A DNA stretch of 64,000 nt, taken from IMG/VR virus record IMGVR_UViG_3300010429_000387, positions 256,001 through 320,000 of that record; one strand, 5' to 3'. Each line of letters opens with the position of its first letter. Position 1 is the first letter of the stretch. Under the pieces are notes generated by a model. That model made no database searches. It saw only the letters and a list, made by a program, of their open reading frames with translations, and was not told the origin of the DNA. The stretch is from a virus (Duplodnaviria > Caudoviricetes). Shown here piece after piece: positions 11,792-58,459 of this stretch. A program made the translations under genes and the position numbers.

Positions 11792-11815
11792 TCTACGCCG
11801 CTAGCCTCTCCTGGG

Positions 11816-11926: not shown

Positions 11927-13504
11927 ATGTTGACCCCTGAGATGATCCACCACTTGCGCTCCCTCACTCGTCTCGTGTACGTGGTGACGGACGAAGAGGA
12001 CCGCTTCATCGTGGATTTTCACGAGCAGATGAAGAAGCATGAGGACCGGATCTGGGTGTTCAACGCAGCTCTGGGCCTGAAGCGAGTCACCGACCTCATC
12101 AAGGACTGGTCGAGTCGAGCCCATGCTGTGGAGACCTCGGCTGCCCAGATCAACGAAGCCCTCATCCGGGTCTACCAAGACGACCCCAAGGACAAGGAGC
12201 ACTTCTACCTGTTCACGGATCCTGAACGCTGGTTCAAGGATGAACACGTCATTCGTCGGGTGCTCAACATCATCCACCAGCTTCACCAGGACCTCCGGAT
12301 CGTCAAGTGCATGATCTTCGTGGGTCCCCGTCGGGTGATTCCGGAGAAGCTCGCCCGATACTTCGAGGTGGTACAGTGCTCTGGTCTCAGCAAGCAAGAG
12401 ACTACCGAACTGGTCGAGGGCTTCTGCAAGCAACTCCAGACCAAGGTACCCAACAATCCGGAGACCCTGTTCCGTGGGATGACCAGCTACGAAATCGAGC
12501 AAGTCATCACTCAGTCGGTGGTCAAGACCAAGAAGGATGCGGTCAACCCCAAGCGTGTGGACCCCACCTTCGTGGCGGAGTACAAGCGCAACCAGATCCG
12601 AAAGACGGACCTGGTCCAGATCATCGAGACTGAGGGAACCACCTTCGAGTCTGTGGGTGGGGCCGACCGTTTCAAGGAGTGGGTCACTGAGACTACCTCT
12701 TGCTGGTCTGAAGAGGGCCAGCGCTTCGGCCTCAAGCCTCCCAAGGGTGTGCTCCTGGTCGGGGTCTACGGGTGCGGCAAGTCCCTTTCGGCCAAGGCTC
12801 TGGCGGCTGAGTGGAAGCTCCCCCTCGTCCAGTTCGAGATGGGCAAGCTCCGTTCCTCTGGCGTGGGTGATTCCGAAGCCAACCTCTACCGGGCACTCCG
12901 GATCGTTGAGTCGGTCTCCCCTTGCATCATGTGGATCGATGAGGCTGAGAAGAGCCTCTCCGGTGGGCAGTCCTCTGCCCAGTCTGATGCGGGTACCACC
13001 TCCCGTCTCCTCGGGATTCTCTCGACGTGGGCACAGGAGTCCAAGTCTCCCGTCTGCCTGGTCATGACGGCCAACTCCCTGAAGACCCTTCCGGCTGAGA
13101 TGGTCAACCGGATGCCGGAACGCTTTTTCTTCGACATTCCGGATGAGGAGGCTCGCATCGACATCATCAAGATCCAGGCCAAGGCTGTGAGTCAGGATGT
13201 GTCGAACTTCAGCTTGGCTGAGCTTGCAGAGAAGGCCAAGCTCTTGGTCGGCCGTGAGATCGAGCAAGCCATCGCTTCGGCCATGACACGTAGCTTCAAC
13301 GCCAAGAAGCCTGCCTTGGATGAGACAATTCTGGGTGAAGAGTTGACCCGAAAGCCCCGGATCATCAAGACCATGGGTGATGAGATCAAGGAAATCATCG
13401 ACTGGGTTGGGTACGACCCCGAGGTGGATGACGGGATCCGTGCTCGCCTGGCCTCCAAGAACCGTTCGGAGTCCTTCCGGGTGATGGCGGGAGAGGGTGG
13501 CTAA
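11927..13504 (+). CDS. Ycf46-like AAA+ ATPase (degenerate N-terminal AAA module plus active AAA module)
   Basis: PKGVLLVGVYGCGKS, G.SE.N, WIDEAEK, TAN; N-terminal YVVTDEEDR. Confidence 0.88.
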   Translation: MLTPEMIHHLRSLTRLVYVVTDEEDRFIVDFHEQMKKHEDRIWVFNAALGLKRVTDLIKDWSSRAHAVETSAAQINEALIRVYQDDPKDKEHFYLFTDPERWFKDEHVIRRVLNIIHQLHQDLRIVKCMIFVGPRRVIPEKLARYFEVVQCSGLSKQETTELVEGFCKQLQTKVPNNPETLFRGMTSYEIEQVITQSVVKTKKDAVNPKRVDPTFVAEYKRNQIRKTDLVQIIETEGTTFESVGGADRFKEWVTETTSCWSEEGQRFGLKPPKGVLLVGVYGCGKSLSAKALAAEWKLPLVQFEMGKLRSSGVGDSEANLYRALRIVESVSPCIMWIDEAEKSLSGGQSSAQSDAGTTSRLLGILSTWAQESKSPVCLVMTANSLKTLPAEMVNRMPERFFFDIPDEEARIDIIKIQAKAVSQDVSNFSLAELAEKAKLLVGREIEQAIASAMTRSFNAKKPALDETILGEELTRKPRIIKTMGDEIKEIIDWVGYDPEVDDGIRARLASKNRSESFRVMAGEGG

Positions 13505-13536
13505 GGTTCTTCTCAGGTGTCCCCAGAGAGGAACCC

Positions 13537-13794
13537 ATGGGATCACGAAACTGGCAGATCATTCGAGACCTGGAGATTGCTCGTTCTGCTGGGAACGCTG
13601 AGCAAGTTGCGAGGCTTTCCGAGTTGGTCGAGCAATCCCAGCAGGATTGCGACCACCCTGCTGAGTCCAAGAAGGTTGGTACTTGTGCTCAGGACACCGA
13701 GACCAAGAACCGTGGCCTGGTTCGGAAGGGGGACCAGGTAGTTTGGTGTCTTGCTTGTAGCCGAATCCTTCGGCACACCCCAAAAAGGTCTTGA
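13537..13794 (+). CDS. Small hypothetical protein (CxH...CxxC)
   Basis: GAGG RBS and ATG. Confidence 0.65.
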   Translation: MGSRNWQIIRDLEIARSAGNAEQVARLSELVEQSQQDCDHPAESKKVGTCAQDTETKNRGLVRKGDQVVWCLACSRILRHTPKRS

Positions 13795-27727: not shown

Positions 27728-28405
27728 TCAGTCGGAGTCAGTGTCGATACTGATGCCGCTCGCTTCTTCATACCTTTCGGACTTGTCTGAGGGGATGTAG
27801 CTTTTTCTGTGGATAGGTGTGAGCCCAAGACGTTTGATTGCAGCATGGTGATCCGGGGTACCATACCCAGATGACTTGTGCAGCCCATAACCAGGGTACT
27901 TCTCGGCCAGGGTCCACATGTAGCGGTCGTGGAGGACCTTGCCGATGACGCTAGCAGCCATGACGGCTGGAACGATCCCATCGGCCTTGGGGAAGTGGAG
28001 GTGCTTGACCCCTGGGAGCTTGACCTCCCCGTCGAGGACCACCAGGGCCTCTGGCTTGACCTCCAAGACCTTTTCGATGCAAGTACGGAAGCACCTGTGG
28101 AGGGCAGCGATGACCCCGTCCCGGTCAATCTCGTCCGAGTGAGCCATCTCGACGGCATACGTCACCTTGGACCGAAGCATCTCGAACAGGTACTCACGCT
28201 TGTCAGGGCGGAGCTTCTTCGAGTCGTTCAGGTCCTTCGGGGGTCTCCAGTCCCTCGGGACAGCGACGGCACAGGTGACCAAGGGACCTGCCCAGGATCC
28301 GTAGCCACACTCATCGGCCCCGAGGATGAAGGGAGCCGTGAGGCGGAGCTTTTCGTACTCCGCCTTGTCATCCCGCTTGGGGGGCTCAGATTCTCTTGTT
28401 TCCAT
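27728..28405 (-). CDS. rnhB: Ribonuclease HII
   Basis: GADECGYG.WAGPL, LNDSKKL, LDG, KAD...VMAAS..GKV..D, GY.T..H, HRKSY. Confidence 0.92.
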   Translation of the reverse strand: METRESEPPKRDDKAEYEKLRLTAPFILGADECGYGSWAGPLVTCAVAVPRDWRPPKDLNDSKKLRPDKREYLFEMLRSKVTYAVEMAHSDEIDRDGVIAALHRCFRTCIEKVLEVKPEALVVLDGEVKLPGVKHLHFPKADGIVPAVMAASVIGKVLHDRYMWTLAEKYPGYGLHKSSGYGTPDHHAAIKRLGLTPIHRKSYIPSDKSERYEEASGISIDTDSD

Positions 28406-28961
28406 GGCGATGCGGTCGGGTCTTGTTGTATTCGGTCTTCTCGTCGATGGCAGCCCAGAGGTCAATCTCGAAACCCTGAGCCAGGTCGAAGGCGTACTTG
28501 ACCGATAGAGCCAGGAAGAACTCCTCTGACAGGGCGGTCTGGGAGTCAGCGTTCCAGGCCATCGAGATGGCCCAGTTCATACGGGCCAGGTACTCCTCGA
28601 TGTCATCGGCATTGGAGATGATGGGGAGCTTGACTACAGACCTCTCCAGGTCGTACTTCTGCTCTTCGGCGTAGTCAGCCACCCGGATCACGAAGTCAGC
28701 CAGCTCGATGGGGATTCCACATGGCTTGTCGCCCTTCTCACCCTTGGTTGTGTACTTGATGCCCCCTTCTGAGTAGGACTTCTCGTACCAAATCTCGGTT
28801 GGTTCGTGGTGCTCCCGGTGCTCCTCGATGACTTCCGAAACCTCGGATTGCATGAGAAGGGTGATGGCAGACCGGGACCGTGGCTTCTCCCACCAGCCCT
28901 TCTCGTGAGCGATCTTGTTGGCTATCTGGGCGAGTTGATTGAGGGACCGGGGAACTTGCAT
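28386..28961 (-). CDS. MazG-like NTP pyrophosphohydrolase
   Basis: SEVSE..E, ELAD..IR..D, EK..YN..R..RHG.K. Confidence 0.8.
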   Translation of the reverse strand: MQVPRSLNQLAQIANKIAHEKGWWEKPRSRSAITLLMQSEVSEVIEEHREHHEPTEIWYEKSYSEGGIKYTTKGEKGDKPCGIPIELADFVIRVADYAEEQKYDLERSVVKLPIISNADDIEEYLARMNWAISMAWNADSQTALSEEFFLALSVKYAFDLAQGFEIDLWAAIDEKTEYNKTRPHRHGNKRI

Positions 28962-35192: not shown

Positions 35193-36365
35193 ATGACCCT
35201 CGATGCTGATAAGCTACAAACCATCAGAACCATCGTGACACATGAGAACTGCTCTGATGGTCTGGCGTCGGCCATGATCCTGAAGAGCGTTCTTCCTGGC
35301 GCCAACGTGGTGTTCCTCTCTTACAACTCGGCAGCTCACAAGGAGCTTTCAGCCATCCCTGGGATGATCTTCTGCGACTTCAGCCCCTATGTGGAGCGAG
35401 TCCAGGAGTTCATCGACGCTGGGGCCATCGTTCTGGACCACCACAAGTACCAGAAGGACGTGGTCGAGGCGTTCGGTGCCAACGGGGTCTTTGCCGATGA
35501 GACCACCAATCCTGGGGTCGCTGGAGCACTCTTGGCCTACCAAGAGGTGTGGCTTCCCCTCGTGAAGTCGGATCCCCAGAGCTACCTGAATGGTGGTGCT
35601 CGTTTGGCCTTCGAGCAGTATCAGCTACAGCTTTCACAGTTGAAGGCTTCTGTTTCTGACCAGCTACTCAAGAGCCTTGGCGAGAAGCCCTCCGTTCAGT
35701 CAATCGACCAGAACCCCGAGGTGGTCCAACTCAACCAGTTCATCGAGAACCTTGTGACCAAGGGGACCTTCTCCAATACGGTGGAGAGGTTCGCCAGGTT
35801 GATCAGCACTCGGGACACCTGGCAGACTCAGTCCGAGCTATGGCACGCTGCCCGTGAGGCACATGAGGCTCTTCAGTTCTTCTCCAAGGACACCTGGCTG
35901 AAGACCCCCATCTTCCCGAACAACGGGGAAGAAGTGGAGTGGAATATCCGAATGAGCATGGGCCACTTCCTGGTCGAGAAGCAGGATCGGAAGACGGCCA
36001 AGGTTCTGGAGGGTGCCTACAAGGGTACCACTCCCAATGGGCTCAAGGTGCTCATCCACCAGGGTGTCTCGGCCACAAGTGACGTGGCTGAGATGTCCAC
36101 GGGCAACGTTGACTTGATCCTCGGGTTCAGCTACTTCTCAGAGAAGGACGATGACCTGGTCAACTGGCCTGGGGCTGGGAACGCTGTTGGACCCAAGATC
36201 GCAGTCTCTTGCCGGACTCGTAACGGGTTCGATGTGGGTGCATTCGCCAAGGCCCACGGGGGTGGCGGACACACCAAGGCAGCAGGGTTCAGCTTCAACG
36301 TGAAGCCGGAGGATCCCAACCCATACATCTACCTCCTCAATCTCGTCAAAGCGTATACGCCGTAG
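35193..36365 (+). CDS. DHH/DHHA1 phosphoesterase (NrnB/oligoribonuclease-like)
   Basis: H.NC.DG..SA, FCDFS, LDHHK, RD.W, S.R, GGGGH..AAGF. Confidence 0.88.
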   Translation: MTLDADKLQTIRTIVTHENCSDGLASAMILKSVLPGANVVFLSYNSAAHKELSAIPGMIFCDFSPYVERVQEFIDAGAIVLDHHKYQKDVVEAFGANGVFADETTNPGVAGALLAYQEVWLPLVKSDPQSYLNGGARLAFEQYQLQLSQLKASVSDQLLKSLGEKPSVQSIDQNPEVVQLNQFIENLVTKGTFSNTVERFARLISTRDTWQTQSELWHAAREAHEALQFFSKDTWLKTPIFPNNGEEVEWNIRMSMGHFLVEKQDRKTAKVLEGAYKGTTPNGLKVLIHQGVSATSDVAEMSTGNVDLILGFSYFSEKDDDLVNWPGAGNAVGPKIAVSCRTRNGFDVGAFAKAHGGGGHTKAAGFSFNVKPEDPNPYIYLLNLVKAYTP

Positions 36366-36383
36366 GCGTGATAGGGGAAAATT

Positions 36384-36425
36384 CCAAGGGCCGGGTGGTA
36401 GTCCCATTCCGGCCCTTGGTCTTTT
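36384..36425. terminator. Hairpin terminator between convergent genes
   Basis: CCAAGGGCCGG...CCGGCCCTTGG followed by TCTTTT. Confidence 0.75.
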
Positions 36426-36491
36426 GTGATCTCGGTGCGAGGGATTTGGGGATGCCCTCCACATAGGATGGGAATCCACCTAGAACGGGGG

Positions 36492-37319
36492 CTAGAGGTT
36501 GGCTCCGATGAGGACTTCCCCGACCATCCCACGCTTGTCCCCGTCGCTGTTGATGCTCCTCTTGGCCTCGATGCGGGCGATTCGGCAGCCCTGGAAGAGC
36601 TTCCTGGTGGTGGACACGTCAGCATTGGACAGGAGAACGGACACTCCTCGGGCAGCCAGGTCCTTGTAGAGTTGGGCCAGCCGTTGGTGGTCCTCGATTC
36701 CGAACCCGTCCTCCGTGTAGGAGACGAAGTTGGCGGTATCGGACTTAGGGAGGTAGGGGGGGTCGAAGTAGACCACGTCCCCTGGTTGGGCACCAGCCAC
36801 CGAGAGGGCGAAGTCCTGGCACTCGATGGTGACCCCCTGAAGGACCTTTGCGGCCTCCAGAATCCCCTCAGAGTCACAGATGGTGGGGTTCGTGTACTTG
36901 CCGAAGGGGACATTGAAGCCCCCGCTCTTGTTGACCCTGTAGAGCCCGTTGAACCCAGCCTTGTTCAAGTAGATGAACCGGGCTGCCCGCTCCTCCAGGG
37001 GGAGGTCGGCGGGGAGCCTGGTCCTCATCTCGTTGAAGAAGTCCCGGTCGTAGGGGTAGGTCTTCAGGATGTCGATGACCCCTTGGGCCTTTCCCGTAGC
37101 GAGGGCTCGGTAGGTATCAGCCAGCTCCGAGTTCATGTCGTTCAGGACGGCCCGCTTGAAGGCCCCTCGGTTGGCAAGAGCGAAGAAGACCGCCCCTCCC
37201 CCCACGAAGGGCTCGTAGTAGGTGTTCATCTGGGCTGGGAGACGGCGGCGAATCGAGGCCAGGAGTTGCCTCTTGCCACCTGCCCACTTCACGAAGGGGG
37301 AGGCTTTGGTCTGGGTCAT
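36492..37319 (-). CDS. dam: Dam-family DNA adenine methyltransferase
   Basis: KWAGGK, EPFVGGG, GFNGLYRVN..G.FNVPFG, DPPY, SN. Confidence 0.93.
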   Translation of the reverse strand: MTQTKASPFVKWAGGKRQLLASIRRRLPAQMNTYYEPFVGGGAVFFALANRGAFKRAVLNDMNSELADTYRALATGKAQGVIDILKTYPYDRDFFNEMRTRLPADLPLEERAARFIYLNKAGFNGLYRVNKSGGFNVPFGKYTNPTICDSEGILEAAKVLQGVTIECQDFALSVAGAQPGDVVYFDPPYLPKSDTANFVSYTEDGFGIEDHQRLAQLYKDLAARGVSVLLSNADVSTTRKLFQGCRIARIEAKRSINSDGDKRGMVGEVLIGANL

Positions 37320-49959: not shown

Positions 49960-50250
49960 ATGAACGACGCCTACCTTGCAGAAGAGATCATCCAACGCCT
50001 CAACCGCCTCATCCAAGATCCCAACGTCAGGGATGACATTGGCAAACTTCTTGAGGTTCGGGTCAATGCAAGCCCAGAGACCTGCAACCACCCAACCATC
50101 CAGGTGCAGTCCGACCTTTTGGGGACCCTGGGGCTCCTGAATGGAATCGTTGGGTCCATCAACTCCGGCTCCAAGCAGGGCTGGGGGTACATCGCTGCTG
50201 TCTTCGATGATAACGGGGTGCTGAAGATCTTCACAAGGATCGGGGCATGA
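49960..50250 (+). CDS. Hypothetical protein
   Basis: GGTGTA 10 nt upstream of ATG; LG.LGLLNG..G motif. Confidence 0.7.
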   Translation: MNDAYLAEEIIQRLNRLIQDPNVRDDIGKLLEVRVNASPETCNHPTIQVQSDLLGTLGLLNGIVGSINSGSKQGWGYIAAVFDDNGVLKIFTRIGA

Positions 50251-50966
50251 TCGTAGGGATTTCGGGTCTCACCATCGAGAGGGGGATCTTCGGGTTCTGG
50301 TCTCGACGGGGCAACGCTGGGGCTGGGAAGGACGAAGCCGCCAAGAGGCTCATTCAGGAGCATGGGTTCGTTCCCCTGGCCTTTGCCGACCCGATGAAGC
50401 GAATCATCAAGGAGGTCTACGCCTTCAGTGATGACCAGCTCTGGGGTCCGAGTGAGATGAGGAACCAGCCAGACCAGAGGTACCCTCAGCACATGTCCCA
50501 TGGCCCGGCCATTGTGGATGTGGTGGACGGCAAGACGGTCCCTCACTGCCTGACCCCCAGGTTTGCCCTCCAGACGCTTGGGGAGGAATGGGGCCGGAAC
50601 TGCTATCGAAACACCTGGGCAGAGTATGCTCTGCGGATAGCTAAGCTCATCGAAGCTGGGGGTTGGGACTACGACCAGAAGACTGGGCTCACCCGGCGAG
50701 ATGGGGCTCCATCTCGGAACGTGGTCATCACGGACCTTCGCTACAAGAACGAGGCGGAAGCAGTCCAGCTTGGAGATGGTTATCTCGTTCGGTGCAAGCG
50801 GGTGGTCCCCAAGCTGAAGGTGGTCCCCAACCACAAGAGCGAGGTGGATCTGCTCTCCGTCCACGATGACGACTTTAACTGGATCCTCAACAACGACGGG
50901 ACAGTTCAAGACCTCTGGAACAAGGTGGACGAGATGGTTCGAGTCTGGCTGGCGAGGGGCAAGTGA
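50247..50966 (+). CDS. Deoxynucleoside monophosphate kinase
   Basis: IVGISG...AGAGKD, AFADP.K, TPR..LQ.LG.E.GR, W, VITD.RY.NE, H.SE, N.GT. Confidence 0.88.
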   Translation: MIVGISGLTIERGIFGFWSRRGNAGAGKDEAAKRLIQEHGFVPLAFADPMKRIIKEVYAFSDDQLWGPSEMRNQPDQRYPQHMSHGPAIVDVVDGKTVPHCLTPRFALQTLGEEWGRNCYRNTWAEYALRIAKLIEAGGWDYDQKTGLTRRDGAPSRNVVITDLRYKNEAEAVQLGDGYLVRCKRVVPKLKVVPNHKSEVDLLSVHDDDFNWILNNDGTVQDLWNKVDEMVRVWLARGK

Positions 50967-51172: not shown

Positions 51173-51393
51173 ATCACCTGACGAACCTCCCTGACAAGAT
51201 CCATGTATTCCCCGATCAAGTCAACTCGTTCGGCCTGGTCTGGGGTCTCGACCGTCCACTGGCCGAACATTTCAGCAAACCTGTCGAGTCTCTCCGCAAG
51301 ACGAAGTGACTCAAGGGTCCTCTGCTGACGGAGCTTGGCAGCGAGCCCTTCAGCGCTCTTTTGGAAGGAAGAGGCTAGGAGTGCTTCGCCCAA
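51169..51393 (-). CDS. Small helical hypothetical protein
   Basis: Downstream of the endolysin on the same strand; start uncertain. Confidence 0.45.
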   Translation of the reverse strand: MGEALLASSFQKSAEGLAAKLRQQRTLESLRLAERLDRFAEMFGQWTVETPDQAERVDLIGEYMDLVREVRQVI

Positions 51394-51406
51394 GACTCAT
51401 GAACTC

Positions 51407-52186
51407 TCACAGGATCTTGGCAAGCTCGAAGTGCATCCCATCTTTTCGTGGGAAGTGTCCGCCCCAGTAGAACCCATGTTCGTTGGCAAGGGGTACGAGC
51501 TTTCGGACGGAGCCTTCCTTGCCAGCAAGTGCTGGAACAGCACCAAGGTAGTTCCAGGCCACATTGATGTCGAAGGCTGTCCCGAATGCGTGGTTGGACA
51601 AGATGGTCCGGCTTCCTCGGATGAACCTTGGGGCATAGGAACCACCCCAGGACTTCACGAGCGGTAGCAGACCAGCGTCTTCCCATGCCTTGAAGAGGGC
51701 TGTGAGTTGGTCAGCCCCCTTGCGGTGGAAGAGGATGCTGTTCCGGATTGGACCACCTTGAACACCTTGGAGCTGTGGGACAACCACGGTCACCATGTTC
51801 TTCGACACCCAACTGTCGGTGATCCGAATGCACTCAGGGTTGCTCGGAATTGAAGCCGGAATGAAGCTGAAACGCCCAAACAAGTCCTCCCTGGTCTTCT
51901 GACTCGGGGGGTTGAAGTTCGGAGGGATAGGCCACCGCTCATCAAGGTCCTCAGGGTTCTCCGTAGGTGGGTTGAAGCCCAACTCCTTGGCCTTCCCCAA
52001 GGTCTGTGGCCCCACCTTACCGTCTACATCCAGATTGAAGTCCTCCTGGAACTGGCTGGTGGCAGCTTCAGTAGCTTCACAGAAGAGCCCAAACCGGTTG
52101 ACTGCCTTCAGGTAATCCTTGGCAATGAGGAAGTTCTGCCAGTCAACGACAGGTTGCCCGGTGGAGCCCTTGAGGAGGATGTCCAT
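51407..52186 (-). CDS. Endolysin: peptidoglycan-binding domain plus M15 peptidase
   Basis: L.KGS.G..V..WQ, FQ....L.VDG.VGP.T; R..RG, SNHAFGTAFDIN, WGG.F...DGMHFE. Confidence 0.9.
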   Translation of the reverse strand: MDILLKGSTGQPVVDWQNFLIAKDYLKAVNRFGLFCEATEAATSQFQEDFNLDVDGKVGPQTLGKAKELGFNPPTENPEDLDERWPIPPNFNPPSQKTREDLFGRFSFIPASIPSNPECIRITDSWVSKNMVTVVVPQLQGVQGGPIRNSILFHRKGADQLTALFKAWEDAGLLPLVKSWGGSYAPRFIRGSRTILSNHAFGTAFDINVAWNYLGAVPALAGKEGSVRKLVPLANEHGFYWGGHFPRKDGMHFELAKIL

Positions 52187-52262
52187 GCCTACTCTGGCTG
52201 ATAAGTGGACTCGCAACCCTAAGATTCCGGGTGGTTGCAAAAAAGATCGGGGTTCGGTCGAT

Positions 52263-52281
52263 TTGTGTTCGACAGACACAA
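52263..52281. promoter_or_regulatory. NrtR-type operator 1, TTGTGT-N7-ACACAA
   Basis: Perfect inverted repeat with GT-N7-AC core directly upstream of nrtR. Confidence 0.75.
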
Positions 52282-52293
52282 TCCCGTGGTGTA

Positions 52294-52322
52294 GATGACT
52301 GTGTAGGACGGACACAGTCATC
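52294..52322. promoter_or_regulatory. NrtR-type operator 2, GATGACTGTGT-N7-ACACAGTCATC
   Basis: Perfect 11-bp inverted repeat with GT-N7-AC core; GGTGTA (52288-52293) lies between the two operators. Confidence 0.75.
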
Positions 52323-52334
52323 CCTGAGGCCCAC

Positions 52335-53111
52335 ATGGTTGCACCCTTTGATCACGAAGAAGCTGAGGACAGGCGACTCAAGTATCGGTACGAGTTTCCG
52401 ATGGCAGCCCTCACCGTGGATGGGGTCGTATTCGGGTTCGACCCGGACGACGTTGACGACCCGCTCAAGGTTCTGCTGATCTTCCGTGGAGAGGAGCCCT
52501 TCAAGGATTGCTGGGCGATTCCAGGTGGGCACGTTAAGATCATCAACGATGAGGGCCTAGAAGATGCCGTTCGTCGGGAGCTTCGTGAGGAGACCGGGGC
52601 TACGATTTCCCACCTCGAACAGCTCTACACCTTTGCGGCCCCTCACCGGGACCCCCGTGGACGTGTTGTTTCGGTGGCCTACCTGGCCCTTGTTCGAGCT
52701 TCCGACTTCGATGTGAAGGGCGGGGACGATGCCACAGAGGCCCGGTGGGTCTCTGTCAACGACCTCAACTTCTCCGGCCAGCAGGTACCGCCCCTTCAAC
52801 TGGCCTTTGACCATGCGGAAATCCTGCTGACGGCCCTGACCCGGCTCCAAGGCAAGATCCGGTATGCCCCCATCGGGTTCAACCTCTTGCCCCCAAGGTT
52901 CACCCTCGCTCAGTTGCAACAACTGTACGAGGCAGTCCTTCAGAGGAAACTCGACAAGAGAAACTTCCGTAAGAGGATCCTCTCAATGGGAATCCTTGTT
53001 GAGGTCGGTGTCAATGAGGAACGTAAGCCGGGTCCGGCTGCCCGCCTCTATCGTTTCGACAAGCGGGCCTATGACCAGGCAGTGAAGCGTGGTTTCAACT
53101 TTGAGATGTAA
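52335..53111 (+). CDS. nrtR: NrtR-family regulator (Nudix plus winged HTH)
   Basis: WAIPGG...E...A.RREL.EETG, LEQLYTF....RDPR.RV.SVAY, LAFDH, FTL..LQ..YE.VL...LDKRNFRK, P..LY.F. Confidence 0.93.
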   Translation: MVAPFDHEEAEDRRLKYRYEFPMAALTVDGVVFGFDPDDVDDPLKVLLIFRGEEPFKDCWAIPGGHVKIINDEGLEDAVRRELREETGATISHLEQLYTFAAPHRDPRGRVVSVAYLALVRASDFDVKGGDDATEARWVSVNDLNFSGQQVPPLQLAFDHAEILLTALTRLQGKIRYAPIGFNLLPPRFTLAQLQQLYEAVLQRKLDKRNFRKRILSMGILVEVGVNEERKPGPAARLYRFDKRAYDQAVKRGFNFEM

Positions 53112-53133
53112 CATCAGGAAAGGTAGGTAAACT

Positions 53134-54069
53134 ATGGGAAGCAGTCATTGGAGTGATGATTTCTACGCTCAACGTGAGCAAGTTCGGAAGAGCACTGGGA
53201 CCTCGGCCTTCGCTCACGATGCCGCTGTGAAGCGGGCGGCACCGAAGGACCAGAAGGTTCACGAGAAGTTGGACCCCAAGGGGGTCAAGTTCCGTGAGGC
53301 TCGGGACTCTCTGGCCCATCCGGAGTCGCTGCCCATCATGGTGATGCTGGACGTGACCGGGTCGATGCAGAACTCGCCCAGGGTGATCCAGGCAGCCCTC
53401 CCTAAGCTGATGGGGAGCATCACGACCTTGGGCGGGACCCAGCACCCTCAGATCCTCTTCGGGGCCATTGGGGATTCCAGGTCGGATCGAGGGTCCCTCC
53501 AGGTCGGCCAGTTCGAGAGTGGGATCGAGATGGATGACGACCTCGGTCGGTTCTGGCTCGAAGGTGGCGGTGGTGGTTCGGGCGAGGAGTCCTACCAGAA
53601 CGCCATCTACTTTGCGGCTCGCCACACGGTCACGGACCATTGGGAGAAGCGCCAGAAGAAAGGCTACCTCTTCATGATCGGGGATGAACTCCCCTACCCT
53701 CAGGTCAGTGCTTCCGAGATCATGACCCTCTGTGACAAGAGCCTCGAAGGGGTGAACATCCCGACGGAGCAGATCGTCAAGGAGGCCCAGGAGCGGTACA
53801 ACGTCTTCTTCATCATCCCACGTCACGCTGACCATGGGTCGGATCCCCGTCTCCGTCAGAGGTGGAGTGACCTTCTTGGGGAAGACCATGTCATCCTGAT
53901 GGACCGGGAAGACTTGATCTCCGAGACCATCGCCCTGGCAATCGGCCTGTGTGAGGGGAACGTGAACCTCGAATCGGAGAAGGTTGATGCCTCGGTGGCG
54001 CTCTCCCTCCGGACCCTCGCTGCAAGCCTCGGGAAGAAGATCCCGACCCCCAAGACCGTTCGCCTGTAA
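53134..54069 (+). CDS. vWA-domain protein
   Basis: MIDAS DVTGS, AIGD, QFES, EGGGG...ESY, IGDE. Confidence 0.85.
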   Translation: MGSSHWSDDFYAQREQVRKSTGTSAFAHDAAVKRAAPKDQKVHEKLDPKGVKFREARDSLAHPESLPIMVMLDVTGSMQNSPRVIQAALPKLMGSITTLGGTQHPQILFGAIGDSRSDRGSLQVGQFESGIEMDDDLGRFWLEGGGGGSGEESYQNAIYFAARHTVTDHWEKRQKKGYLFMIGDELPYPQVSASEIMTLCDKSLEGVNIPTEQIVKEAQERYNVFFIIPRHADHGSDPRLRQRWSDLLGEDHVILMDREDLISETIALAIGLCEGNVNLESEKVDASVALSLRTLAASLGKKIPTPKTVRL

Positions 54070-54080
54070 CTCGTTCACGA

Positions 54081-54108
54081 AGCCGGGGAGGAGGGGTCCT
54101 CCCCGGTT
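54081..54108 (+). other. Intra-operon RNA hairpin without U-tract
   Basis: AGCCGGGGAGGA-GGGG-TCCTCCCCGGTT. Confidence 0.6.
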
Positions 54109-54119
54109 CTGAGGTTGTC

Positions 54120-55457
54120 ATGTCAAAGGTCATCTTGGTTGCTGGAGCAGGCTTCGGAGACGAGGGCAAGGGGTCGATTGTAGACCACCTGACCCGCAAG
54201 CACTCGGCCCAAACCATCGTTCGCTACAACGGGGGAGCCCAAGCAGCCCACAACGTTGTGGACCCCGACGGGAGGCACCACACCTTCTCCCAGTTCGGGT
54301 CGGGTACCCTTGCTGGGGCCAAGACCCACCTCAGTCGATTCATGCTGGTGAACCCCATCTCGATGATCTCCGAGGGCAATCACCTGGTCTCCCTGGGGGT
54401 CTCAGACGCCTTCCAGAGGGTGACAGTAGATGGTGAAGCCCTGGTCACCACACCCTTCCACGTCTCCCTCAACCGAATCCGGGAGTTGTGCCGGGATGCT
54501 GGGGAGGGGCGGCACGGGTCCTGTGGAATGGGAATCGGAGAGACTGTGGCCTATGCAGTAGCCAACCCTGAGGGGGCTATCAGGTTCAAGGACCTTTCCA
54601 ATCCAGGGACCCTGATGGTGAAGCTCGGGGACCTCCAGGACTACATGGTCACGGAGGCCAGCAAACTGGTGGGCAAGGTTCCCCTCAATGATGGCTTGGA
54701 GAAGGAGTGCAAGCTCATTTGCCAAGATGAGTTGGCGTCAATCTGCTTGGAGTGGTTCGCTAAGCTCCTGAGTCTTGGGGTCAGATCAGTAGGCCCTGAG
54801 TATCTGTCGGCAGTCCTCACCAAAGGGACAACCATCTTCGAGGGAGCCCAAGGGGTTCTCTTGGATGAGGAGTGGGGCTTCCATCCCTTCACGACCCGGA
54901 GCAACTGTACCTTCGAGAACGCCCTCCAGCTCATCGAGGGCTTCAATGGTGAGGTCACCAAGGTAGGGGTCCTTCGAGCCTACCACACTCGGCACGGGGC
55001 TGGCCCCTTCCCAACTGAGAGCCCAGAGGTCAAGGCTACAGGAGACCACAATGGGGTCGGACCTTGGCAGAAAGGATTCCGAGCCGGGTACTTCGACTTC
55101 GTGTTGGCCCGGTATGCTCGTCTGGCCCTCGGGGGCGTCGATGAGGTGGCCCTCTGCCATCTCGACCACGTCCAGGGACCCCAGAAGGTCTGCCTCGCCT
55201 ACGCATGGCCCCACTGGTATGGCCCTCAAGGCCCGAACCAGTACAAGATCCACAAGATACCCAGGGCAGACTACGAGCGGCTGAAGGCAATGTTCGATGA
55301 AGAGGGGAGCACGTATCAGCACCCCTACGACGGGACGATAGAGCCTGTCTACACGACACTTCCGAGCGTTGACCGTCTGATCTCCGGTGTAGAGAAGGCT
55401 ATGAGAGCACCTGTGACGATTCGATCCTATGGGACTAGAGCTGGAGACAAGCGATGA
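54120..55457 (+). CDS. Divergent adenylosuccinate-synthetase (PurA)-fold ligase
   Basis: GDEGKG, R.NGG.QA.H, G.GIG, FEGAQG.LLD...G..P..T.S, Y.TRHG.GPFPTE; lacks the TTGR aspartate-binding loop. Confidence 0.88.
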   Translation: MSKVILVAGAGFGDEGKGSIVDHLTRKHSAQTIVRYNGGAQAAHNVVDPDGRHHTFSQFGSGTLAGAKTHLSRFMLVNPISMISEGNHLVSLGVSDAFQRVTVDGEALVTTPFHVSLNRIRELCRDAGEGRHGSCGMGIGETVAYAVANPEGAIRFKDLSNPGTLMVKLGDLQDYMVTEASKLVGKVPLNDGLEKECKLICQDELASICLEWFAKLLSLGVRSVGPEYLSAVLTKGTTIFEGAQGVLLDEEWGFHPFTTRSNCTFENALQLIEGFNGEVTKVGVLRAYHTRHGAGPFPTESPEVKATGDHNGVGPWQKGFRAGYFDFVLARYARLALGGVDEVALCHLDHVQGPQKVCLAYAWPHWYGPQGPNQYKIHKIPRADYERLKAMFDEEGSTYQHPYDGTIEPVYTTLPSVDRLISGVEKAMRAPVTIRSYGTRAGDKR

Positions 55458-56452
55458 GCGTCAAGGCGGTCCTGGCTCAGACGGAGCACCTGAACAGGCT
55501 GGTGGCTTCGATTCGGTTCGACAAGCCTGGGGTGAAGTCCGTCAAGTTCGGGGACAAGACCCTGGTCGTTCAGGGGCGGGTGCTTCAGGGGGACCTCTGC
55601 GACATCTACGAGGGTACCTACACAGACCCGAAGCCCGTGGATGAGACCGCCAAGACTGTCGGCACCCGGTTCGACCGGATCCTTGACGATGAAGACGAGG
55701 TTGAAGGTGGGATTCCTGTGCTGGTCAAGGTAGCGAGGAGCGACCTCGACAACGACCTGGTTGAGAACGAGGCCAACAACCTGGGTGTCCTCTACCCTCT
55801 CACCGAGAAGGACGAGAAGTTCTACCGGTACCTCCCCCGAAGCTATGGGGGGTTCAAGACCAAGAACGAGCTTCAAGCCCACATCCTTGGCAGGATCGAT
55901 GGGTTCGTCACCTTGGCTGACATCTTGAAAGCCTACCCGAAGGGACTGGACTTCCGGGACATGGTCTGGATGTTCAAGCGGACCCTGGCCGGGATCGGGT
56001 TCGCTCACGAGAACAAGTTCGTCCACGGGGCGATCCTGCCACCTCACCTGATGTTCCACCCGACCGACCACGGGGCAAAGATCATCGACTGGTCCTACTC
56101 GATTCGGATGACCAGCTCCAAGGGGGGTCGGCTCAAGGCCATGGTGGCAGGGTACGAGGATTTCTACGCTCCGGAGATTCCTGACCGGAGAGACACCAAC
56201 CAGACGGCAGACCTGTACATGGTTGCCAAGTGCATGATGGCGACCTTGGGGGCGGACCTGAAGACGAACGCCATGCCGGACTCGGTACCCAAGCCTCTTC
56301 AGGACTTCCTTCGTCGCTTTATCGACCCCCAGCCTGGGATGAGGGTCTCCGATGCGTGGGCACTCCACGATGTCCTTGACGGGATCCTGCTGGACCTCGT
56401 TGGGAAGCCCAAGTACCGACCGCTCAAGATGCCATCCCACACGGCCCCCTAA
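55454..56452 (+). CDS. Ser/Thr-kinase-fold protein with atypical catalytic loop and internal TRFDRIL tag
   Basis: VLVK, N.E, HGAILPPHL (in place of HRD..N), IDW, YAPE, DLY. Confidence 0.8.
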   Translation: MSVKAVLAQTEHLNRLVASIRFDKPGVKSVKFGDKTLVVQGRVLQGDLCDIYEGTYTDPKPVDETAKTVGTRFDRILDDEDEVEGGIPVLVKVARSDLDNDLVENEANNLGVLYPLTEKDEKFYRYLPRSYGGFKTKNELQAHILGRIDGFVTLADILKAYPKGLDFRDMVWMFKRTLAGIGFAHENKFVHGAILPPHLMFHPTDHGAKIIDWSYSIRMTSSKGGRLKAMVAGYEDFYAPEIPDRRDTNQTADLYMVAKCMMATLGADLKTNAMPDSVPKPLQDFLRRFIDPQPGMRVSDAWALHDVLDGILLDLVGKPKYRPLKMPSHTAP

Positions 56453-56475
56453 AGCCCTTTTCAAGTCTGTAGGGT

Positions 56476-57219
56476 ATGGCCGACAGACTACCCGATCAGA
56501 AAACGCCCTCAACCAAAGAAGAGCTGCTCGAAGCCCTCTGGAGGGCCTGGCTTCACCTGTTTGGGGAGCCTCCCAAGAAGGAATCCATCTGGATCCTGAT
56601 GGCACAATGGGCCTTGGAAACCGGATGGGGCAAGTATTGCCACAACTACAACCTCGGGAACGTGAAGTCCTCGAACGGGGACGGGTACGACTACACCTAC
56701 TTCGCTTGCAACGAGATCCTGAAGACAGCTCAGGCTCAAGCCTATGCTGCGAAGAGTCCGGACACAGCCAAGATCACCGTCTACCGGAAGGATGGAACGG
56801 CCATCATCTGGTTCTATCCGGACCACCCTGGTTGCCGGTTCCGAGCCTTCCACACGCTCCTGGAAGGGGCTACTGACCACATCAGTATCGTTCACAAGCG
56901 GTTCTCGAAGGCATGGCCTGCTGTGATTGCTGGCAATCCAGCTCAGTATTCCCACATGCTTCGGCAGCAGGGGTACTACACGGCTGACGAGTCCAGCTAC
57001 ACGAAGACCCTGGTGTCGGTCTACAACACCATCAAGGCGGTCAAGTTCGATTACGACTCTCTCCCCGTGGTGAACGAGGAACAGAGTGAACGGATCATGA
57101 ACTTGGTTGCTCTGACCATGCAGCAAAGCATCGAGGAGAGCACCCGATTCACACGGGTGCTATTCGATGATGAGGACGAGAATCCAACAGTGGATGAGTC
57201 GGGGAAAGCGAACGCCTGA
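56476..57219 (+). CDS. GH73/glucosaminidase-like peptidoglycan hydrolase with TRFTRVL tail
   Basis: AQWALETGWG, N.N.GN.K, FRAF....G, GYYTA...Y. Confidence 0.75.
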   Translation: MADRLPDQKTPSTKEELLEALWRAWLHLFGEPPKKESIWILMAQWALETGWGKYCHNYNLGNVKSSNGDGYDYTYFACNEILKTAQAQAYAAKSPDTAKITVYRKDGTAIIWFYPDHPGCRFRAFHTLLEGATDHISIVHKRFSKAWPAVIAGNPAQYSHMLRQQGYYTADESSYTKTLVSVYNTIKAVKFDYDSLPVVNEEQSERIMNLVALTMQQSIEESTRFTRVLFDDEDENPTVDESGKANA

Positions 57220-57225
57220 GGGCGC

Positions 57226-57582
57226 TCAGTTCTTCCCTTTCCTGCCACTTTTCTTGGTCCAGTTCTCTGGCGGGGCCGGAGTCGGAGCGGGAGCCGGGGC
57301 TTCCTCAACGGGGGCCTCGGGCTCAGCCTTGACAGGCTCCTCTGCTTTGACAGGCTCGGGGGCTGGGACAGCCTTCCGGACCTCCATCTCTCCAACGATC
57401 AGGGTGCCCTTGGAGGATGAGGCAGACTCTACCTGAGTGACAACCGGCTTCCGAAGCTCCTGGACCTCTTCGATGAGTTCCAGAATGTAGTTGGTCGCAT
57501 TTCCGAGGGTTGCACCAGAGCCCATGGCCTGGATTGCCCGAGCCCTGAGGTCGATGAGTTCCTGATCTGTCATTCGAGCCAT
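57226..57582 (-). CDS. Hypothetical protein with Pro/Glu/Ala-rich tail
   Basis: GGAGG RBS. Confidence 0.65.
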   Translation of the reverse strand: MARMTDQELIDLRARAIQAMGSGATLGNATNYILELIEEVQELRKPVVTQVESASSSKGTLIVGEMEVRKAVPAPEPVKAEEPVKAEPEAPVEEAPAPAPTPAPPENWTKKSGRKGKN

Positions 57583-57628
57583 TCTAGTCCTCCAGTCTGT
57601 CTCCTTGATAAGTAGATCCAGCCACTAC

Positions 57629-58459
57629 TCAGAAGGAGAAGCGTTCTGCCCGACGGGTCATCCGAATGTTGGAGAGCATGTAGCTGGTCCTGAATGGTAG
57701 GACCTGCGGGCTGGTCTCCAACTGGAACAACGGACCCCCTCGAAGTACGAGGGACGAGACCAGGAAATCTGGGGGTGTGTCTGAAGGGTCTTCCTTGGGG
57801 GGAGGTGCCAGCCAGGCAACCACGTCAGCATCCTTGAAGGTTGGTGCCTTAGTCTGCATCCACCGAAGAGCAAGACCCATCCTACGACGGCTCTCGGTCT
57901 CACCCTTGTCACAGGACCCGCTAGCATAGACCTTCAGCTTGTCCTGGAGGGGTGTCATGCCACAAGAGGCAAAAGAGGTTCGTAGAACAGCCAGAGCTGC
58001 ATGGAAGCACTTCTTCCGGTCGGACACTAGGTCTTCCCCACCCCAACCCTCATCTGCTTTGGTGGTGAAACGGTAACCTCCTCCGATGTTCACCACGATC
58101 CGGGTAGGAGTTTTCCCTTGGGTATTGGCCTTCCCAAGGTTGAGCTGATTCAGGCACCAACTCTTGCCACCGTCTCCTCTTGAGAGTTTCCCTTCACCGT
58201 AGTCAACGTCCTTGCGAAAACCACTCTCAAACGTGGCAACAGCGAGCAAGACGTTGATGGTCTTGATCCTGGCAGTATCCCCTGAGAACAAGGGTTTCTC
58301 CGAAGGATCATAGACTACTTCGATTGCGTCACGGGCGATTGACTCATACCGCTCCTGAGCTTCTTCAGCCGTCTCCTTAGCCTCTGGGATGTACTGAGGC
58401 CGTCCCATAGGGGCAACGGCAGACATGAGCGACAGAATCCATGCGATTACTAGGTCCAA
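57629..58459 (-). CDS. Secreted or membrane lysozyme/lytic-transglycosylase-like protein
   Basis: Hydrophobic N-terminus, A..ESGF, GD.G.S.C..Q, YASG.C; AAGGAGG RBS before TTG. Confidence 0.6.
   Translation of the reverse strand: MDLVIAWILSLMSAVAPMGRPQYIPEAKETAEEAQERYESIARDAIEVVYDPSEKPLFSGDTARIKTINVLLAVATFESGFRKDVDYGEGKLSRGDGGKSWCLNQLNLGKANTQGKTPTRIVVNIGGGYRFTTKADEGWGGEDLVSDRKKCFHAALAVLRTSFASCGMTPLQDKLKVYASGSCDKGETESRRRMGLALRWMQTKAPTFKDADVVAWLAPPPKEDPSDTPPDFLVSSLVLRGGPLFQLETSPQVLPFRTSYMLSNIRMTRRAERFSF

Follow-up and report, generated by a model that had tools for sequence, protein, structure and literature searches.

A putative NrtR-type switch around a phage promoter box, in a probable Nampt-less form of the phage NAD-rescue operon

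The 64-kb stretch of DNA analyzed here (the window) belongs to a phage genome of 407,078 bp from wastewater and contains a four-gene cassette that is probably an NrtR-type switch, built around a phage promoter, controlling a Nampt-less form of the phage NAD-rescue operon. This reading rests on the anatomy of the locus, the protein families, the uniqueness of the sites, the conservation of both the gene set and the operator type, and a gene context of NAD and ADP-ribose enzymes. The original prediction, in which ADP-ribose served as an alarm that turned on a three-protein module for possible counterdefense, is partly supported. No paper describing the trio of vWA, PurA-like, and pseudokinase genes was found in the literature, and the trio is a widespread, undescribed module.

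Anatomy of the cassette and its promoter region

The features of the cassette, in window positions, are as follows.

52263 to 52281, no strand: candidate operator O1, TTGTGT-N7-ACACAA, an NrtR-type palindrome 5' of the promoter box
52288 to 52293, plus strand: GGTGTA, promoter-like box of the phage group, between O1 and O2
52294 to 52322, no strand: candidate operator O2, GATGACTGTGT-N7-ACACAGTCATC, a perfect 29-bp palindrome (11+7+11)
52326 to 52329, plus strand: GAGG ribosome-binding site, 5 nt ahead of the nrtR ATG at 52335
52335 to 53111, plus strand: nrtR, Nudix and NrtR winged-helix domains, 258 aa (PF21906, 1.3e-24; PF00293, 1.1e-16)
53134 to 54069, plus strand: vWA/MIDAS protein, 311 aa (phrog_2971, 8.6e-52)
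54083 to 54106, plus strand: GC-rich hairpin with a 10-bp stem and a GGGG loop, located within the 50 nt that separate the vWA gene from the PurA-like gene and followed by TTCTGAGG
54120 to 55457, plus strand: PurA-fold enzyme, 445 aa, full-length fold (PF00709, Adenylsucc_synt, 2.2e-59)
55454 to 56452, plus strand: kinase-fold protein (phrog_3043, 3.3e-29; Pkinase, 2.6e-7, just under the Pfam cut-off)
56476 to 57219, plus strand: glucosaminidase-like gene (PF01832, 5.8e-8)

Reading the sequence confirmed the anatomy described in the original prediction: two palindromes with GGTGTA between them, four genes in one orientation, and the ATGA through which the PurA-like and kinase-like genes overlap (55454 to 55457). 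Both palindromes and the box sit in a divergent intergenic region of 148 bp, with an endolysin-like gene on the other side, and the centers of O1 and O2 (52272 and 52308) are 36 bp apart. The TGTGT-N7-ACACA core had two copies in the 407,078 bp, both within this intergenic region, with 0.25 expected from the base composition. When one mismatch was allowed, the window contained four matches versus 1.3 expected; the remaining two were imperfect, and the one that was inspected, at 17627, lay within a coding region.

GGTGTA is a real genome-wide signal of the phage: 51 of its 250 copies lay exactly 9 to 10 nt 5' of an ORF start (ORFs of at least 60 aa), and six control hexamers gave at most 11 copies at that distance. 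The copy in the cassette, 41 nt from the nrtR ATG, is leadered, and the 9- to 10-nt spacing between GGTGTA and the start at leaderless genes predicts a transcription start at about 52303, under O2. O2 would also fold as a hairpin in the 5' leader. The glucosaminidase-like gene begins 23 nt 3' of the kinase-like gene, no terminator intervenes, and the transcription unit probably ends with it; because this gene is absent from related loci, it falls outside the conserved module.

Regulator and cargo proteins

The assignment of the first gene to the NrtR family was borne out by matches to both domains, with NUDIX (PF00293) at residues 45 to 152, its REx2EE box intact, and NrtR_WHD (PF21906) at residues 181 to 241, covering the full profile length. 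The Nudix box was unbroken throughout the NrtR clade in sequence comparisons. The match to NF050029, “ADPR responsive repressor,” reached 154.7 bits (E 2.8e-45) against an equivalog cut-off of 400, and the protein is thus a family member rather than the curated equivalog. In published regulons, NrtR recognizes 21-bp palindromic motifs built on a GT-N7-AC core and is released in vitro by ADP-ribose (PMC2330246). O1 and O2 likewise have about 21 bp of symmetry and the GT-N7-AC core and bracket the phage promoter box, in agreement with their designation as NrtR-type sites. The described regulons of Shewanella and Synechocystis (Rodionov et al. 2008, PMC2330246) share with the cassette a repressor composed of Nudix and winged-helix domains and 21-bp GT-N7-AC palindromes next to the promoter, and Nampt (nadV) is a target there and in related phages. 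Here, in contrast, the regulator is phage encoded and placed around a phage-type promoter box, and the putative regulon is a single operon that lacks a NAD-synthesis gene and carries three uncharacterized proteins as its cargo. The gene context argues for a NAD-derived ligand of NrtR, the most likely candidates being ADP-ribose and closely related products of NAD breakdown.

The vWA protein had no Pfam match in the domain search; its AF2 model (pLDDT 80, pTM 0.84) matched the vWA domains of integrin beta-I and pilus adhesins in Foldseek (probability 1.0, E 4e-7), and the MIDAS residues D73-V-T75-G-S77 and G183-D184-E185 were invariant or nearly so at the sequence level among 43 sequences, so the fold originally proposed stands. 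At its N terminus, MG was invariant and a W6-S7...Y11 motif almost invariant.

The PurA-fold assignment also held, with the phosphoryl-transfer residues retained and the aspartate pocket lost. Residues were mapped by alignment to Yersinia and E. coli PurA, together with family conservation. G13, D14, K17, G18, and H44, which represent the GDEGKG P-loop and the catalytic Asp13/His41 of PurA (EC 6.3.4.4), were invariant in 43 sequences, and the GAQG motif and the guanine-specifying Asp were also kept. The aspartate loop TTGRxRR (E. coli T300, T301, and R303-R305), in contrast, was replaced by an invariant Q-x3-R (Q317/R321) within the consensus (G)xWQGxFR, where W316 was nearly invariant. Furthermore, R131 of PurA is replaced by M, GTTGRGIGP reads GSCGMGIGE, and the IMP-phosphate ligands are altered (N38 to Q and T129 to C, with the R143 equivalent not conserved). 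The enzyme fell under all curated cut-offs for both PurA and PurZ, scoring 163.7 versus 402 bits with NF002223, 138.2 versus 396 with TIGR00184, and 36.2 versus 300 with the PurZ model NF038379, the last over the N-terminal 64 residues only. Members of this enzyme family always had a vWA gene alongside.

The kinase-fold protein (AF2 pLDDT 87) matched PknG, PAK1, and MST3 in Foldseek (E of about 1e-12) and kept an invariant beta3 Lys (K92) and alphaC Glu (E106). It lacks the catalytic Asp, with HGA in place of HRD/HGD (family loop H-G-A-(I/V)-L-P-x-H), and its DFG motif reads IDW, in which the Asp is not conserved among relatives. Judged from these residues, it would be a catalytically dead kinase fold, in accordance with the original pseudokinase call. 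A disordered insert at residues 66 to 82 bears the tag TRFDRILDDEDE. Most homologs of the pseudokinase have an HPD J-domain, a Hsp70-recruiting domain, which the phage protein has lost. The TerY-P triad comprises a vWA protein, a Ser/Thr kinase, and a PP2C phosphatase, and a vWA protein is genetically coupled to a kinase-fold protein in both systems; here, however, the kinase is missing its catalytic Asp, the cassette has no phosphatase gene, and the PurA-like enzyme is the constant partner.

Related cassettes in bacteria and huge phages

Similar gene sets had been thought possible in bacteria, and the gene-neighborhood search found the four-gene set at 43 of 80 bacterial loci (Planctomycetota and Actinomycetota), with nrtR directly 5' of and co-directional with kin-vWA-PurA, as well as in seven related huge phages. 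The phage NrtR was 52 to 60% identical to the NrtRs of the Planctomycete cassettes, and the helix DKRNFRK(K/R)IL was common to both. Twelve Planctomycete loci contained 14 double sites of the form (A/T/C)GTGT-N7-ACAC, 22 to 23 bp apart around a TAnnnT hexamer, and most of these sites lay 12 to 14 nt ahead of a start codon. Their core is that of O1 (GTGT-N7-ACAC), and GGTGTA holds the place that the -10-like TAnnnT hexamer takes between the Planctomycete operators. In five Planctomycete genomes of 7 to 11 Mb the double site was confined to the cassette, and a reversed-pattern control gave 0. In the two Planctomycete genomes in which nrtR and the trio are separated, a double site of its own accompanies the trio; the intervening genes encode isochorismatase-like, DUF4291, KptA, uncharacterized 153-aa, and ADP-ribosylglycohydrolase (ARH) proteins in one genome and NADAR and KptA in the other. 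ARH was a neighbor in three Planctomycete relatives (L040, L062, and L020).

The seven related huge-phage loci had the gene order of the window, NrtR-vWA-PurA-kin, with Nampt at all seven and a cytidylyltransferase-like (NMNAT-like) gene 3' of kin at three. No match to Nampt (PF04095) was found anywhere in the 407-kb phage genome, with positive controls. The claim that the cassette has no NAD-salvage gene therefore holds for this phage but fails for its relatives, in which Nampt lies inside every same-order operon. Since all of these related cassettes contain Nampt, the present one is better regarded as a Nampt-less NAD-rescue operon than as a case of NrtR recruited to unrelated cargo, and since the phage has no Nampt-family gene, any “NAD rescue” here must take a route other than classical salvage. 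Among the related phage loci, L101, L102, and L135 had a pair of sites with a spacing of 23 bp, of which the second was fused to GGTGTA, whereas operators were atypical at L106 and L113 and not evident at L104 and L105. Phage NAD+ reconstitution pathways comprise NARP1, NARP2, and NARP3, as summarized in PMC13464706, which cites NrtR only as a bacterial regulator. The NARP2 gene pair of Nampt and NMNAT(-like) also occurs in the same operon of the related huge phages, and the presumed purpose, coping with NAD depletion, would be common to both, although the phage studied here lacks Nampt.

NrtR was absent from 78 of the 89 phage trio loci examined, and the NrtR-less trio was found at 9/9 first-scan loci, in Bixzunavirus, and at 73/80 second-scan loci (the scans partly overlap); because most phage copies lack NrtR, the module evidently works without the switch. 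In the tree, the vWA and PurA-like proteins of the window grouped with a phage/Myxococcota clade, and a Planctomycete grouping was rejected (AU p 2e-5, for a group chosen after the tree had been seen). Given that these two proteins fall outside the Planctomycete clade in spite of the similarity of the NrtRs, the NrtR link has been re-made rather than simply inherited, and the trio has come under NrtR control repeatedly in evolution. The company of the trio, namely, Nampt, the NMNAT-like gene, ARH, NADAR, and KptA, is what an ADP-ribose or NAD-breakdown alarm would predict, and its recurrence with NrtR beside NAD-recycling and ADP-ribose-removing genes ties this undescribed module to the fight over NAD.

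Alternative readings and proposed mechanism

It is possible, if somewhat unlikely, that the operon is a general metabolic helper that adjusts the supply of NAD and purine nucleotides to the needs of a very large phage genome, with NrtR as homeostatic feedback and NADase immunity irrelevant. Bacterial NrtR regulons are homeostatic (PMC2330246), the bacterial cassettes are chromosomal and belong to free-living Actinomycetes, Planctomycetes, and Chloroflexota, and the phage relatives carry the plain salvage genes Nampt and NMNAT-like. The phage pair of Nampt and NMNAT, however, is the published NARP2 counterdefense route (PMC13464706), the ARH, NADAR, and KptA of the Planctomycete regulon act on ADP-ribose conjugates and not on supply, and the double operator controls only the cassette and not the NAD genes of the cells.

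A role in repairing ADP-ribosylated macromolecules is unlikely. In that case, the chaperone-type adaptors would be the vWA protein and the J-domain pseudokinase, binding to ADP-ribosylated proteins or nucleic acids, and processing of the adduct or its product would fall to the PurA-like enzyme. The model for this is the predicted ARG-centric Nudix-/WYL-regulated conflict systems (Iyer, Burroughs, and Aravind 2022, PMC9503650, section 3.8), put to phage use against host ADP-ribosyltransferase defenses. Those systems, from Actinobacteria and Planctomycetes, have in common with the cassettes a Nudix-HTH repressor, a vWA “chaperone,” and ARG, NADAR, or Macro neighbors, and the Planctomycete cassettes match their description; moreover, ARH, NADAR, and KptA share the NrtR regulon with the trio, most pseudokinase homologs bear the J-domain, and the phage genome has an ARH-like gene far from the cassette (genome positions 35922 to 36773) and a NADAR-like gene elsewhere. 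The ARG-centric systems are, however, predicted host systems against viral ADP-ribosylation, whereas the phage cassette contains no ARG (ARH) or NADAR gene and the phage relatives couple the trio with Nampt rather than ARH. In addition, neither a PurA-like enzyme nor a pseudokinase is described in PMC9503650 (“adenylosuccinate” has 0 occurrences), and PurA chemistry has no obvious role in ADP-ribose removal.

NrtR might instead sense a sugar or a compound that the PurA-like enzyme consumes or makes, and there would then be no NAD-breakdown alarm; this is distinctly unlikely. The closest solved relative by sequence was Bacteroides AraR (1e-37), an arabinose sensor of the NrtR family, followed by Shewanella NrtR (3e-28); family members have been recruited to pentose regulons (PMC2330246), and the NF050029 score lies under the equivalog cut-off. 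Nevertheless, the REx2EE box that is intact in the phage protein aligns with RVLAEL in AraR, the runner-up NCBIfam matches of the Nudix part were bifunctional NMN adenylyltransferase/Nudix (ADP-ribose pyrophosphatase) models, and the context genes are all NAD or ADP-ribose enzymes. That the palindromes serve another factor, or work through RNA or DNA structure on behalf of the divergent endolysin-like gene, would fit the divergent region and the possible 5'-leader hairpin but is highly improbable, given that their core, doubling, and nrtR-adjacent position recur at the 12 Planctomycete loci, the recognition helix is shared, and the double site occurs nowhere else in the five Planctomycete genomes.

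Under the preferred reading, an NrtR-switched, Nampt-less NAD-rescue operon, we infer the ligand, repression and derepression, co-transcription, the enzyme substrate, and the counterdefense role. NrtR dimers would most likely occupy O1 (about -40 to -22) and O2 (over the predicted start), bracketing GGTGTA, and would repress their own operon, nrtR-vWA-PurA-like-pseudokinase, probably with the glucosaminidase-like gene. With no repressor delivered by the phage, the operon would be on at first and would shut itself off as NrtR accumulated, but it would stay on when the Nudix-domain ligand, most probably ADP-ribose or a closely related product of NAD breakdown, was abundant. The cargo, a MIDAS vWA protein, a GTP-type PurA-fold ligase without the aspartate pocket, and a dead kinase fold, would then deal with something that NAD breakdown yields or brings about and would sustain the NAD/adenylate economy while NAD is being destroyed, for example, by host NADase defenses.

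We know of no NrtR switch, and of no vWA/PurA-like/pseudokinase trio, in the described NARP systems. A speculative and fairly unlikely extension is that the trio forms an enzymatic route in the NAD/ADP-ribose economy that has so far escaped description and is induced by the substrate or alarm to which it responds. In PurA chemistry, GTP drives the phosphorylation of an oxygen, which a nitrogen nucleophile then displaces. If the extension were true, such chemistry, re-aimed at ADP-ribose or one of its 6-oxopurine derivatives, could return the products of NAD breakdown to use by recycling or re-activation. The trio would then be a fourth type of phage pathway for rescuing NAD or recycling ADP-ribose, in which the vWA protein and the J-domain pseudokinase would serve as adaptor or regulator. 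The hairpin between the vWA and PurA-like genes (-28.2 kcal/mol; z of -2.9 versus shuffles) is a possible attenuator or RNA-stability element and could split the operon.

Operators, promoter element and source genome

The original prediction described two palindromes (O1 and O2), a GGTGTA box between them and four co-directional genes, the last two coupled by an ATGA overlap, and every one of these features was recovered when the sequence was re-read. The cassette and its surroundings are as follows, in window coordinates.

50247-50966, + strand: deoxynucleoside-monophosphate-kinase-like gene (phrog_139, 1.8e-34), just upstream of the region
51407-52186, - strand: endolysin-like gene (Peptidase_M15_4 and PG_binding_1), divergent from nrtR
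52263-52281: palindrome O1
52288-52293: GGTGTA box
52294-52322: palindrome O2
52335-53111, + strand: nrtR, with GAGG five nt before its ATG by sequence reading
53134-54069, + strand: vWA gene
54083-54106: GC-rich hairpin (10-bp stem, GGGG loop) in the vWA/PurA-like gap, directly before the GAGG of the PurA-like gene
54120-55457, + strand: PurA-like gene
55454-56452, + strand: kinase-like (pseudokinase) gene
56476-57219, + strand: glucosaminidase-like gene

The core common to O1 and O2, TGTGT-N7-ACACA, occurred twice in the entire 407-kb genome, against 0.25 occurrences expected from base composition, and both copies lay in the 148-bp divergent intergenic region. The looser pattern GTGT-N7-ACAC occurred six times, approximately the number expected by chance. 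A near-matching third site of the GTGT type, at 17627, lay inside a coding region and was taken as a chance occurrence. The likely start codon of the endolysin-like gene is the ATG at 52186, with O1 77 nt upstream, and because this gene is divergent from nrtR, O1 might also affect its expression. The cassette is flanked by two unlike peptidoglycan hydrolase-like genes, one of the M15 plus PG-binding type and one of the glucosaminidase type.

A test of positional enrichment showed GGTGTA to be a genuine signal across the genome: of its 250 copies, 51 lay 9 to 10 nt before a start codon (ORFs of at least 60 aa), and six control hexamers had at most 11 copies at that position. A scan for sigma70-type promoters across 51300-57700 found no sites, and GGTGTA appears to be used by this phage group in their place. 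If transcription begins 9 to 10 nt past GGTGTA, as at leaderless genes, then the start would be at about 52303, within the left half-site of O2, and O1 would span roughly -40 to -22. In two metatranscriptome runs from one study, only 151-nt contigs covered the cassette, at 52436-52769 in nrtR and at 56148-56469 at the 3' end of the kinase-like gene; these are read-sized, may reflect DNA carry-over and do not allow start, strand or co-transcription to be read. The hairpin before the PurA-like gene (-28 kcal/mol, z -2.9) may serve in attenuation, processing or stabilisation of the transcript.

The virus record of 407,078 bp has direct terminal repeats and 58% G+C. Near-identical DNA was found in anaerobic-digester and wastewater metagenomes from at least five studies, and the cassette DNA had no match, near or distant, among the 50,697 phage records of INPHARED. 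A strain approximately 97% identical, from another wastewater study (run X6), carried the whole arrangement intact on one contig (51400-56991), with 21 nt inserted in frame at 54498, within the PurA-like gene, and 6 nt inserted at 57168, where the glucosaminidase-like gene encodes its acidic tail.

NrtR and the three-gene module in bacteria and phages

The suggestion that similar gene sets exist in bacteria was borne out. In a scan of species-representative genomes that returned 348 stretches, 43 of the best 80 loci had an NrtR homologue directly upstream of, and co-directional with, the trio of kinase-like, vWA and PurA-like genes, in the order NrtR, kinase-like, vWA, PurA. These NrtR-linked loci belonged to two lineages, Planctomycetota and Actinomycetota, whose regulators were 51 to 57% and 38 to 46% identical to the phage NrtR (tblastn), respectively.

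All Planctomycete cassettes had two tandem (A/T/C)GTGT-N7-ACAC sites, 22 to 23 bp apart, bracketing a TAnnnT hexamer, and most of these double sites ended 12 to 14 nt before a start codon. In five Planctomycete genomes (7 to 11.4 Mb), the double site occurred once or twice each, always at the cassette, and a reversed-pattern control gave no occurrences in the same genomes. In two of the five (loci L040 and L079), nrtR stood apart from the trio, and at these two loci and at L062 and L066 a second double site lay directly before the kinase-like or the vWA gene. The genes between nrtR and the second double site included the following: at one of L040 and L079, an isochorismatase-like fragment, DUF4291, KptA/Tpt1, an unknown 153-aa protein and an ADP-ribosylglycohydrolase (ARH); and at the other, NADAR and KptA. 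Similar intervening blocks were present at L062 and L066, and at L020 an ARH gene followed PurA. Nudix-transcription-factor-regulated "ARG-centric" systems have been predicted in Actinobacteria and Planctomycetes by Iyer, Burroughs and Aravind (PMC9503650), and the Planctomycete blocks fit the vWA "chaperones" and NADAR/Macro genes described in section 3.8 of that article, where, in contrast to the cassette described here, no PurA-like enzyme is listed.

In the Actinomycete cassettes, no GT-N7-AC site was found. Nine Actinomycete loci from closely related genera (including L054, L063, L067, L069, L070 and L082) had an AT-rich palindrome, TTCTTCT-N7-AGA(A/T)GAA, approximately 65 to 78 nt upstream of nrtR, which may be the operator of the Actinomycete NrtR clade, whose recognition helix differs. 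The predicted recognition segment DKRNFRK(K/R)IL and the C-terminal KRGFNFE were common to the phage and Planctomycete NrtRs; the Actinomycete group differed at this segment and lacked the motif.

Among phages, the trio, a conserved and mobile module, was found in the order kinase-like, vWA, PurA-like in nine IMG/VR loci and in Bixzunavirus (Gizmo genes 267 to 270), with nothing shared in the flanks beyond the trio itself; its presence in the well-studied Bxz1-type mycobacteriophages offers a tractable model, mycobacteriophage with M. smegmatis. A second viral scan returned 287 stretches, and among the best 80 loci, 50 had the order kinase-like, vWA, PurA, 19 had vWA and PurA, and seven (L101, L102, L104, L105, L106, L113 and L135, on contigs of about 11 to 513 kb) had the order of the window, with NrtRs 53 to 64% identical to that of the window. 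Most phage trios were without NrtR. L101, L102 and L135 each had a pair of operator sites separated by 23 bp, with GGTGTA fused to the second; sites at L106 and L113 were atypical, and none were seen at the L104 and L105 cassettes.

All seven same-order phage loci contained a Nampt gene (NAPRTase plus NAMPT_N, E down to 9e-59), in the nrtR/vWA gap or, in L113, in the vWA/PurA gap. Furthermore, in L104 to L106 a 379-aa protein with a cytidylyltransferase-like (NMNAT-type) domain was encoded directly after the kinase-like gene, and Nampt plus NMNAT is the published NARP2 route of the phage NAD+ reconstitution pathway, as given in the abstract of PMC13464706. The earlier observation that the cassette has no NAD-salvage gene therefore holds for the phage of the window, in which no Nampt-family gene was found anywhere in the genome, and does not extend to its seven relatives. 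This phage has four further genes of related type outside the window, with no GTGT-N7-ACAC sites near them (genome coordinates).

28379-28687, - strand: second Nudix protein gene
35922-36773, - strand: ARH-like gene
326082-326483, - strand: cytidylyltransferase-like gene
349351-349869, + strand: NADAR-like gene, 40% identical to a Planctomycete regulon member

Four other viral loci bore related or partial gene sets. The vWA protein on a 6-kb viral contig (L103) was the closest viral match to that of the window (55%), and just upstream of its gene only the last ~89 residues of a Nampt were detectable, at 3569-3835; the fragment may have been left behind when Nampt was lost, as is inferred to have happened in the phage of the window. 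L011, on a 362-kb phage contig, had a frameshift-broken vWA gene (7956-8900) and no PurA-like gene within the stretch of the contig that was covered; here the module may be in decay. NrtR homologues in L012 and L013 accompanied other cargo, with NADAR genes nearby. In L013, from a 452-kb phage, the palindrome TTTTGGT-N7-ACCAAAA and a 6/7 copy (GT-N7-AC) lay at 7880-7990, upstream of the NrtR homologue and near GGTGTA boxes. The cargo of this locus (4415-13565) consisted of unknown proteins and a PP2C phosphatase, and its neighbours included Nudix proteins, a nucleoside 2-deoxyribosyltransferase-like/Nudix fusion and a NADAR-like gene.

In a concatenated vWA and PurA tree, the window grouped with phage loci and Myxococcota (SH-aLRT 93), apart from the Planctomycete clade, and an AU test, for a group named after the tree was seen, rejected forcing the window and the Planctomycete clade together (p 2e-5). 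The NrtR and operator type of the window are of the Planctomycete kind and its vWA and PurA are not; therefore, regulator and enzymes did not simply arrive together. NrtR and the trio have been brought together anew in separate lineages and with differing gene orders, and this recurrence speaks for a functional connection. The arrangement of operator, -10 element and operator was kept, with the bacterial TAnnnT replaced by the phage GGTGTA and the spacing widened from 22-23 bp to 36 bp. A bacterial repressor switch has been re-built by the phage around its own minimal promoter; among the huge phages of this group, it could be the first case of gene expression under ligand control.

Cassette proteins and proposed working of the module

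NrtR comprised a NUDIX domain with an intact Nudix box (REx2EE) and an NrtR winged-helix domain at full profile length. It matched the NCBIfam "ADPR responsive repressor" model at 2.8e-45, with 155 bits, below the cut-off of 400, and its closest solved relatives by sequence were B. thetaiotaomicron AraR (1e-37), an Enterococcus Nudix protein and Shewanella NrtR (3e-28).

The PurA-like protein matched PF00709 from end to end (2.2e-59) and scored far under all curated PurA/PurZ cut-offs. Compared with Yersinia and E. coli PurA, it kept the GDEGKG P-loop, the catalytic Asp and His, GAQG and the guanine-specifying Asp. The aspartate-closing loop (GATTGRRRR in E. coli) was replaced by an invariant Q-x3-R within the consensus (G)xWQGxFR, with W nearly invariant; GTTGRGIGP was changed to GSCGMGIGE, with the Cys invariant; and the IMP-phosphate ligands were changed.

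The vWA protein belonged to phrog_2971 and had no Pfam or NCBIfam match. Its model, built from a nine-sequence alignment (pLDDT 80, pTM 0.84), matched integrin beta-I and pilus-adhesin vWA domains (probability 1.0, E 4e-7), and the family keeps the MIDAS-type D-x-T-G-S and G-D-E motifs and a conserved N-terminus (MG invariant, W6-S7...Y11 nearly invariant). Of 8,000 candidates scored, at least 7,854 clusters matched this family with an E-value no higher than 0.001, and none of the 120 matches listed had a Pfam domain or an informative name. A complex of the PurA-like and vWA proteins, predicted from paired alignments of 43 rows, scored 0.00 where the mark was 0.32, a value that speaks neither for nor against contact between the two.

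The kinase-like protein gave a confident protein-kinase-fold model (pLDDT 87), with PknG, PAK1 and MST3 matched at E ~1e-12, and retained the beta3 Lys and alphaC Glu. Throughout the family the catalytic loop is HGA(I/V)LPxH and the DFG Asp is not conserved. An HPD-containing J-like segment at the N-terminus of most homologues was lost in the copy of the window (RFD), which instead has a disordered acidic insert at residues 66 to 82. PADLOC returned weak kinase-fold matches only (MkoA 2.6e-13, PD-T4-6) and no match for the vWA or PurA-like protein.

With the anatomy, family assignments and conserved wiring of the cassette established, a working can be proposed. NrtR bound at O1 and O2 would keep the operon repressed until released by ADP-ribose or a closely related compound. 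As a phage-borne autorepressor, it would permit expression at first and self-shut-off after, with expression sustained only while the ligand stays high, for example, when host NADases are firing. In the PurA-like enzyme, GTP binding, phosphorylation of an oxygen and displacement by a nitrogen nucleophile would be expected to persist, with a nucleophile other than aspartate and an altered nucleotide pocket; the vWA protein and the pseudokinase have the look of adaptors or regulators. Operons are usually induced by their own substrate or by a signal that they are needed, and the role favoured for the module is therefore to deal with the products of NAD breakdown or with what follows from them. 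Counter-defence is plausible by analogy, because relatives carry NARP2 genes. NAD depletion is among the commonest bacterial responses to phage, and the known phage counter-measures (NARP1-3, sponges) are few. No description of the trio was found in the literature on PurA-like/adenylosuccinate proteins in phages with vWA or kinase. An unstudied three-gene module is repeatedly wired to an ADP-ribose-type sensor, NrtR, and its neighbours, which are Nampt/NMNAT-like genes in phages and ARH/NADAR/KptA genes in bacteria, give it a functional address that can be tested.

A short motif, [T/S]RFxR[I/V/L][L/F/I] plus an acidic run, was noted in eight ORFs of at least 80 aa in the genome, often at or near the C-terminus, and may be a docking or targeting signal. 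It was present in the disordered internal insert of the kinase-like protein (55652-55702, residues 67 to 83) and at the C-terminus of the glucosaminidase-like protein (57130-57219); in addition, an 81-aa peptide encoded between Nampt and vWA in L104 bears both this tag and a vWA-like N-terminus, MGGGFWTDDFY.
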